Below, piece by piece: positions 51,783-51,940 of a DNA stretch of 55,858 nt. The notes under the pieces are model-generated. The model worked only from the letters and a program-made list of their open reading frames with translations. It did not search any database and was not told the origin of the DNA. The stretch lies in IMG/VR virus record IMGVR_UViG_2660237930_000002; one strand, given 5' to 3'. This DNA is from a virus (Duplodnaviria; Heunggongvirae; Uroviricota; Caudoviricetes). The translations under genes were made by a program, and so were the position numbers. Positions within the stretch are counted from its first letter, which is position 1. The number at the start of each line of letters is the position of its first letter.

Positions 51783-51940
51783 CATGGCATTTTTCATGGT
51801 ACTGATTTCCGGTGACGGTATATAAAACGGTACGAGAAAAATTTATCTTTGGAAAAATGTTATCACTCAATTGGTTATGTTATCCGTAAATAATTGAGTG
51901 GGAGTAGGACTGGCTATAAATAGTAAATTAAGCCTTTCCA

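Follow-up and report, generated by a model that had tools for sequence, protein, structure and literature searches.

The window analyzed here is a stretch of 55,858 nucleotides from a tailed-phage record (IMGVR_UViG_2660237930_000002), whose portion from 13076 to 55858 is 99.98% identical to Escherichia coli CU532-9. It contains guaA, a prophage that occupies the 3' end of this gene and, beyond the prophage, a 3.3-kb block (hereafter the islet) that encodes an ATPase and a membrane protein with a receiver domain. The prophage is collinear with phiV10 in its lysis cassette, tailspike, virion genes, and integrase, and the element is a podovirus of the genus Uetakevirus. At the end of the phage genes, 110 bp downstream of the Rz/spanin gene (51300-51782, DUF2514) and 47 bp upstream of a strong terminator, the plus strand carries an exact copy of the 11-bp motif ATTGAGTGGGA (51893-51903). 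Very probably, as judged from sequence comparison, this copy is the core of the real right attachment site (attR) of a Uetakevirus (epsilon15/phiV10-like) prophage that extends from 13274 to 51903, spanning 38,630 bp (38.6 kb, usual for the genus). The initial annotation had instead placed attR at 55212-55226 and extended the prophage from 13276 to 55226, reading the 52-55 kb region as phage cargo and the motif at 51893 as the possible relic of a secondary or ancestral attachment site. The type of site is ordinary and already described, that is, the known attachment (att) site of a known phage genus, and the finding corrects the boundary of the prophage. Modestly new are the 11-bp core at a bacterial site (attB) modified by an islet, the preference for the guaA-side site, and an islet that was possibly mobilised in trans.

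This placement draws on the anatomy of the junctions, on reconstructions of the phage site (attP) and of attB, and on the distribution of the junctions across genomes. The same core, ATTGAGTGGGA, is found at both ends of the prophage, at 13274 and 51893, with 11 bp against the canonical 17; of the 17-bp core at the left site (attL), only 13274-13284 is common to attR in this strain. In attL the DNA on the left side of the 11-mer is bacterial and that on the right side is phage, whereas attR has phage DNA on the left and bacterial DNA on the right. Homology to the chromosome sets in with base 1 of the 11-mer (51893), and homology to phages ends with its last base (51903). Joining 51783-51903 to 13285-13480 rebuilt a 317-bp attP that aligned without rearrangement with those of phiV10, to which it is nearly identical, and epsilon15. 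Relative to phiV10 the entire segment 13274-51903 is circularly permuted, with its two ends at phiV10 positions 26720-26730, and no match to phiV10 was found for 51904-55226. In all free phages of the collection (phiV10, epsilon15, EC.W1-9, phiv142-3, ZX5, and others) homology reached 51903 and then stopped. Joining 13204-13284 to 51904 onward likewise rebuilt an empty site that is base-for-base the guaA end of the phage-free E. coli UPEC132 (...CCAGCGACTATTGAGTGGGAGTAGGACTGGCTATAAATAG..., with guaA...ATTGAGTGGGA running directly into GTAGGACTGGC...). The attP reads TAAATA-ATTGAGTGGGAATGATT-AACAGC and has 17 bp in common with the canonical attB (in K-12, ...CCATTGAGTGGGAATGATTTGACC...), whereas the islet-type attB shares only ATTGAGTGGGA with it, because its next bases are GTAGGA.

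Comparison of the region 49900-55400 with 5426 complete E. coli genomes yielded three classes of matches. Six genomes carried both phage and islet, E. coli CU532-9 and GN02350 being examples of lysogens with this arrangement. Another 22 were phage-free and matched 51893-55400 in one piece at 99.3-100% identity (100% in most), with guaA directly upstream. The third class comprised many genomes in which the phage lysis genes were followed directly by yfgI, with no islet in between (...GTAAATAATTGAGTGGGAATGATTTTGATCC-yfgI; in FDAARGOS_497, ...CCGTAAATAATTGAGTGGGAATGATTTTGATCC... and then yfgI). The junction of guaA with the phage P' arm was present in 568 of the genomes, and the Rz-attR-yfgI junction in 350 (at least 80% coverage). 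The six islet-bearing lysogens represent at least four different prophages, with distinct P-arm sequences and distinct tailspike genes, and all of them join at GTAAATAAT/TGAGTGGGA/GTAGGACTGG. None of the 28 islet-bearing genomes had a phage at the distal copy (the equivalent of 55212), since the six lysogens and the 22 contiguous matches account for all 28. The proximal site was the one used in all six lysogens, which stand for at least four independent events; the distal site, although it retains 15 of the 17 core bases, was used in none. The guaA-side half-site thus seems to matter more than the ATGATT side, and 11 bp of identity plus the flank on the side of guaA would be a sufficient and preferred target, with the distal copy, which lacks that flank, left unused.

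Table 1. Features of the window that bear on the attachment sites, the prophage boundary, and the islet
Feature	Position	Strand	Remarks
Short tandem duplications (examples)	1303/1330, 3011/3036/3059, 3348/3377, 3520/3553, 8630/8671, 10874/10940, 11448/11469		
guaA open reading frame	11711-13288	+	Ends ...PPATIEWE*
attL core	13274-13290	+	17-bp Uetakevirus core ATTGAGTGGGAATGATT as in PMC9782041; last guaA codons I-E-W-E-stop
P' arm of prophage	13291-13480	+	Collinear with phiV10 and epsilon15 attP
Phage-borne terminator in P' arm	13334-13361		Now downstream of guaA
Arm-type site GTGACGGTAT	13415-13424		P' arm
Arm-type site GTGACGGTAT, one mismatch	13445-13454	-	P' arm
Phage integrase gene	13481-14731	+	Pfam Arm-DNA-bind_3 and Phage_integrase; tyrosine integrase
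Exact GTGACGGTAT sites inside integrase gene	13650, 13740, 13993	-	
Coincidental copy of ATTGAGTGGGA	35494-35504	+	In frame (GIEWEY) in tail-protein gene 34708-37179
P arm of prophage	51783-51892	+	Between Rz stop and core
Arm-type site GTGACGGTAT	51812-51821		P arm
attR core (very probable)	51893-51903	+	11-bp identity between phage attP and islet-type attB
Chromosomal islet, outside prophage	51904-55211		3.3 kb; >=99% identity in 28 of 5426 E. coli genomes (22 phage-free)
Islet terminator, left end	51950-51977	+	Intrinsic; follows guaA in phage-free islet strains and the phage lysis operon in the lysogen
Islet gene, 258-aa membrane protein with C-terminal receiver (REC) domain	52202-52978	-	Pfam Response_reg, 1.8e-7; annotated 'response regulator'
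IS481-family transposase fragment	53066-53461	-	rve_3 only, N-terminus missing
Islet gene, ABC-type ATPase, 504 aa	53477-54991	-	AAA_15/AAA_21; OLD/AriA-like defence resemblance; RefSeq start 54946
Distal islet boundary, displaced ancestral guaA 3' end	55212-55226	+	TGAGTGGGAATGATT
Ancestral guaA terminator	55251-55278		Downstream of 55212-55226

The sites expected for an integrase of this genus are likewise clustered at the two ends of the prophage. In the epsilon15 record the 10-mer GTGACGGTAT is annotated as an integrase binding site to the left and right of the core as well as within int. Five exact copies occur in the window, all within about 720 bp of 13274 or 51893 (Table 1), and the stretch matching the integration host factor sites annotated in epsilon15 lies at about 51861-51903. 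No copy with up to one mismatch was detected in 52000-55858, so the site at 55212 is without a P arm. Within the prophage, a tRNA-Arg gene (anticodon tct; 28498-28574, minus strand) was observed between the terminase and portal regions. At the left end, positions 1-13076 of the window contain many short tandem duplications of 21-66 bp, which are absent from the near-identical CU532-9, from UPEC132, and from K-12. They break the frame of guaB (open reading frames 9945-11000, 11042-11425, and 11391-11642) and that of a large sinH/rat-like adhesin gene, and have the look of an artefact of assembly or sequencing, or of a deliberate change, and not of biology.

The motif in itself is weak evidence, and the functional case is carried by the comparative junctions. 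Exact copies of ATTGAGTGGGA are expected 0.02 times per window in dinucleotide-preserving shuffles (the initial annotation, whose 11-bp match to the att core was confirmed as exact, had put chance at about 0.03), and three were observed, at 13274, 35494, and 51893. The count of exact copies is significant, but these figures say little because any 11-mer of the att region of about 30 bp could have been selected post hoc and because the copy at 35494 is coincidental; furthermore, the expectation rises to 0.84 copies per window if one mismatch is allowed. A chance 11-mer without function at 51893 would fit those numbers, but the end of phage homology and the start of chromosomal homology fall at the edges of the 11-mer in dozens of independent genomes, which leaves this explanation next to no credence. 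The copy at 35494 was also considered as an att site and rejected. Together with the following GTA it has 14 bp in common with the 51893 site, and it lies in a homologue of phiV10p15, in which phiV10 has ATTGAGTGGGA and epsilon15 has ATCCAGTGGGA (IQWE); it is a coding coincidence, found in phiV10 but not at the nucleotide level in epsilon15. A more substantial alternative is the longer prophage of the initial annotation. On the one hand, TGAGTGGGAATGATT at 55212-55226 shares 15 bp with attL and only 9 bp with the 51893 site, and this repeat exceeds the 11-bp one, so that repeat length alone favours the longer element. Provirus calls of related strains in IMG/VR (UViG_2541047801_000004 and UViG_2541047813_000005; loci L059 and L061) end at the equivalent of 55214 and include the islet, an outcome explained by the distal 15-bp repeat being longer than the true 11-bp attL/attR repeat. 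On the other hand, the block stands beside guaA in 22 prophage-free genomes and is missing both from the free phages and from the 350 lysogens with Rz-attR-yfgI, attP can be rebuilt only via 51893, and there are no integrase arm sites near 55212. We therefore regard the longer prophage as extremely improbable. Three further points weigh against our own placement of attR. The 11-bp identity is shorter than the published 17-bp core, the role of the 51893-51903 junction, excision included, is read from sequence comparison, and the junctions do not tell the order of events, given that a phage entering an islet-bearing attB and an islet entering the attR of a lysogen give the same structure.

Several elements of the initial annotation can be reassessed on this basis. 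Its proposal of an attachment junction at 51893 was right in that the junction is a genuine product of site-specific recombination, but the reconstructions of attP and of the empty site point to the actual attR, not to a secondary or ancestral third copy. The reading of 52-55 kb as cargo does not stand, as free phages of the genus lack the block and their homology stops exactly at 51903. The segment 55212-55226, taken as attR, is the distal boundary of the islet and the displaced original 3' end of guaA, and the terminator at 51950-51977, assigned to the late operon, belongs to the islet side, where it follows guaA in phage-free strains. The suggestion that the block arrived by a separate site-specific event was borne out, by its position beside guaA in the 22 phage-free E. 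coli genomes and at the equivalent guaA site in Kluyvera. The two comparisons proposed to examine it were informative as well: in related phages homology ends at 51903, with Rz-attR-yfgI free of the block in the 350 lysogens, and a homologue of the block in Kluyvera is flanked on both sides by GAGTGGGA.

The attachment site closely follows those of its genus. For vB_EcoP_ZX5, experiments in which attB, attL, and attR were sequenced confirmed attgagtgggaatgatt as the core at the guaA 3' end, and a core at this position is stated as proved for phiV10 and epsilon15 (PMC9782041). On excision dependent on Int/Xis, the same literature covers only the canonical site. The motif at 51893 corresponds to the first 11 bases of this published core. 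The window shares with these Uetakevirus members the target gene, the core bases, the position of the integrase, and the arm 10-mer GTGACGGTAT, and its attP arms are close to those of phiV10 over the 317 bp. As in these phages, a stop codon for guaA and a terminator are supplied by the phage. Unlike the canonical site, the attB of this lineage is altered by a resident islet, so that attL and attR share 11 of the 17 core bases, and the right flank of attR is islet DNA instead of the spacer between guaA and yfgI.

Direct repeats of TGAGTGGGA (51895-51903 and 55212-55220) bound the islet. It begins with G-TAG, bases that rebuild the last codon and the stop of guaA, which in islet strains still ends in IEWE* and is followed by a terminator; the P' arm does the equivalent job in the lysogen, through ATGA and the terminator at 13334-13361. 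This phage-borne hairpin and the ancestral one at 55251-55278 have nearly the same sequence (AACCCTCTGTT..TACAGAGGGTTTTT), and the P' arm thus seems to have captured a copy of the 3' flank of guaA. In Kluyvera sp. 142359 the islet occupies the equivalent position at guaA, with GAGTGGGA on both sides. The islets of E. coli and Kluyvera are 96.9% identical (98.8% in the REC gene) compared with 85.6% for guaA, and past the distal repeat the two genera have unrelated DNA. The contrast in identity and the unrelated downstream flanks support a separate site-specific arrival of the islet, and are indicative of its recent horizontal transfer, as a discrete unit, into the same 8-bp core.

The best PADLOC matches of the islet ATPase were PDC-M01A, AriA, AriAB, and PtuA, and PADLOC gave no match for the REC protein or the insertion sequence (IS) fragment. 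The C-terminal half of the ATPase has no Pfam match but includes LILEGEDDERVW, a stretch with some likeness to a Toprim/OLD motif. Homologues with 72-81% amino-acid identity occur in Alphaproteobacteria and Halomonadaceae, a distribution that would imply wide and recent horizontal spread. In Kluyvera, Vreelandella, and Carnimonas the ATPase gene lies directly downstream of guaA, the two Halomonadaceae homologues having about 80% amino-acid identity. In Carnimonas sp. (locus L023, 12847-14944) a pair formed by an AAA_15/AAA_21 ATPase and a DUF4435 protein (PARIS-like) stands directly after guaA, beside the ATPase homologue. No integrase was found at the ATPase-bearing guaA loci of Vreelandella and Carnimonas, only the AAA_15 and DUF4435 pair, Fic, radical-SAM, and similar genes. 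These loci suggest that small defence-type insertions recur at the guaA 3' flank, which may be a hotspot of defence islets in several families. Among viral contigs scanned with the ATPase, the only carriers were predicted proviruses in isolate genomes, with ends that run over into the islet, and no free phage was among them. An Rfam scan of 51000-55858 (E<=0.1) had no match, and no known RNA explains the region.

A related integrase offers a second point of comparison. GIsul2 has three sites for attachment, named attL, attLR, and attR, at guaA with the core GAGTGGGA, and its integrase moves the integrase-less unit CR2-sul2 in trans (PMC9376610). Over 396 aa, the integrase of the window and the GIsul2 Int of pAB3 (NZ_CP012005.1; int at 31035-32237 of locus L058) are 54% identical (blastp, E=7e-161), which indicates that the phage and the antibiotic-resistance island share an integrase clade targeting the guaA stop codon at GAGTGGGA. 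A tblastn search of the phage integrase against plasmids found an integrase locus of Acinetobacter that is unrelated. The two systems resemble each other in their homologous integrases, in the target at the guaA 3' end, and in the 8-bp core, which is contained in the motif of the window; both also have a three-site layout with an integrase-less unit (CR2-sul2 or the islet) between the middle and right sites. The islet itself lies at the guaA 3' end between copies of TGAGTGGGA at 51895 and 55212, and between copies of GAGTGGGA in Kluyvera, as expected for a site of the GIsul2 type. An AlpA-type regulator gene is a further common feature, directly adjacent to int in GIsul2 and about 1.2 kb from it in phiV10. 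The two systems differ in that the left element of the window is a complete phage and not an integrative mobilisable island. After the core, GIsul2 and the islet show only a loose resemblance (GAGTGGGAGT..ACTGGCT in both). Queries with the islet ends by blastn in distant mode against a plasmid collection that includes the GIsul2-bearing pAB3 retrieved only one chromosome filed among plasmids by PLSDB. The islet has no P4-like integrase of its own (with AlpA), its genes being only the ATPase, the IS481 fragment, and the REC protein. Membership of the islet in GIsul2 was rejected, as it has no integrase, no GIsul2 or CR2-sul2 match of its ends in that plasmid collection, and no phage arm sites. 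That two integrative elements can occupy one att site in tandem is a general phenomenon. The window is like such cases in having two elements beside one gene, a hybrid att between them, and regeneration of the gene's 3' end by each, but unlike them in that the second element is only 3.3 kb and lacks an integrase.

How the islet arrived and whether it preceded the phage are two questions on which several explanations compete. By analogy with CR2-sul2 and the GIsul2 Int, the islet could be an integrase-less, att-flanked mobile cassette that rides on the guaA-specific integrases of the Uetakevirus/GIsul2 clade. Trans-mobilisation is put forward here as a hypothesis that is doubtful but conceivable, because the integrase-less form of the islet is common to Kluyvera and E. 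coli at the same core and because of the 54% identity between the integrases; in this case the junction of an islet circle would read ...CTCATTGATAGC-TGAGTGGGA-GTAGGACTGGC.... Transposition would instead make the 9-bp TGAGTGGGA repeat a target-site duplication. Nine base pairs are a common length for such duplications, and a fragment of an IS481-family transposase is present in the islet, but this fragment is internal and truncated. The Kluyvera islet, moreover, lies at the equivalent guaA codon, its GAGTGGGA repeat being 8 bp long and its downstream flank unrelated; the repeat is the experimentally defined core of GIsul2, and G-TAG exactly restores the C-terminus and stop of guaA ahead of a terminator, as is typical of elements that target the 3' ends of genes. 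We thus consider transposition very unlikely. As to the order, the phage may have come first, into a 17-bp attB, and the islet later, into GAGTGGGA of the lysogen attR, with the phage-free strains arising by precise excision. Both orders would end in identical junction sequences, and insertion of integrase-less units into the attR core of a guaA island already in place is known from GIsul2 (PMC9376610). Yet the presence of islets at least 99% identical next to at least four prophages and in 22 phage-free genomes would require repeated islet insertions or phage replacement, and Kluyvera has the islet with no phage in its 21-kb locus, which makes this order improbable. An islet that came first is the more economical history, since near-identical islets stand beside four different phages and in the 22 phage-free genomes, and we infer this order from parsimony across genomes only.

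Under the islet-first history, the guaA end of the lineage would already have been altered by a 3.3-kb islet inserted at GAGTGGGA when the phage arrived. The phage integrase would bind the GTGACGGTAT arm sites on both arms and recombine an attP of the form ...CGTAAATA-ATTGAGTGGGAATGATT-AACAGC... with the guaA 3' end, where attB would then read ...GCGACT-ATTGAGTGGGA-GTAGGACTGG... and be identical to attP over only 11 bp in place of the usual 17. Strand exchange would occur inside those 11 bp, producing an attL made of guaA, a phage-supplied 'ATGA' stop, and the phage terminator, and an attR made of the phage P arm, the 11-mer, and the islet. In the integrated state the terminators are swapped, the phage terminator following guaA and the islet terminator following the lysis operon. 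Excision would regenerate the attP junction ...CCGTAAATAATTGAGTGGGAATGATTAACAGC... and restore attB as guaA-ATTGAGTGGGAGTAGGACTGG.

These results fix the boundary of the prophage at 13274-51903, and the ATPase and REC genes should not be annotated as phage morons. The same boundary error is made by callers that choose the longest direct repeat. The natural lysogens also show that an attB with no more than ATTGAGTGGGA in common with attP suffices for the Uetakevirus integrase, which would place the overlap region of strand exchange within these 11 bp. They add a case to the view that related integrases and small islets of the defence type land in common at the guaA stop codon. If the islet is indeed a cassette mobilised in trans, the window would be a three-site array composed of attL, phage, middle att, cassette, and right att, and a cassette with an OLD-like defence ATPase could be excised, swapped between genera, or acquired along with the phage.
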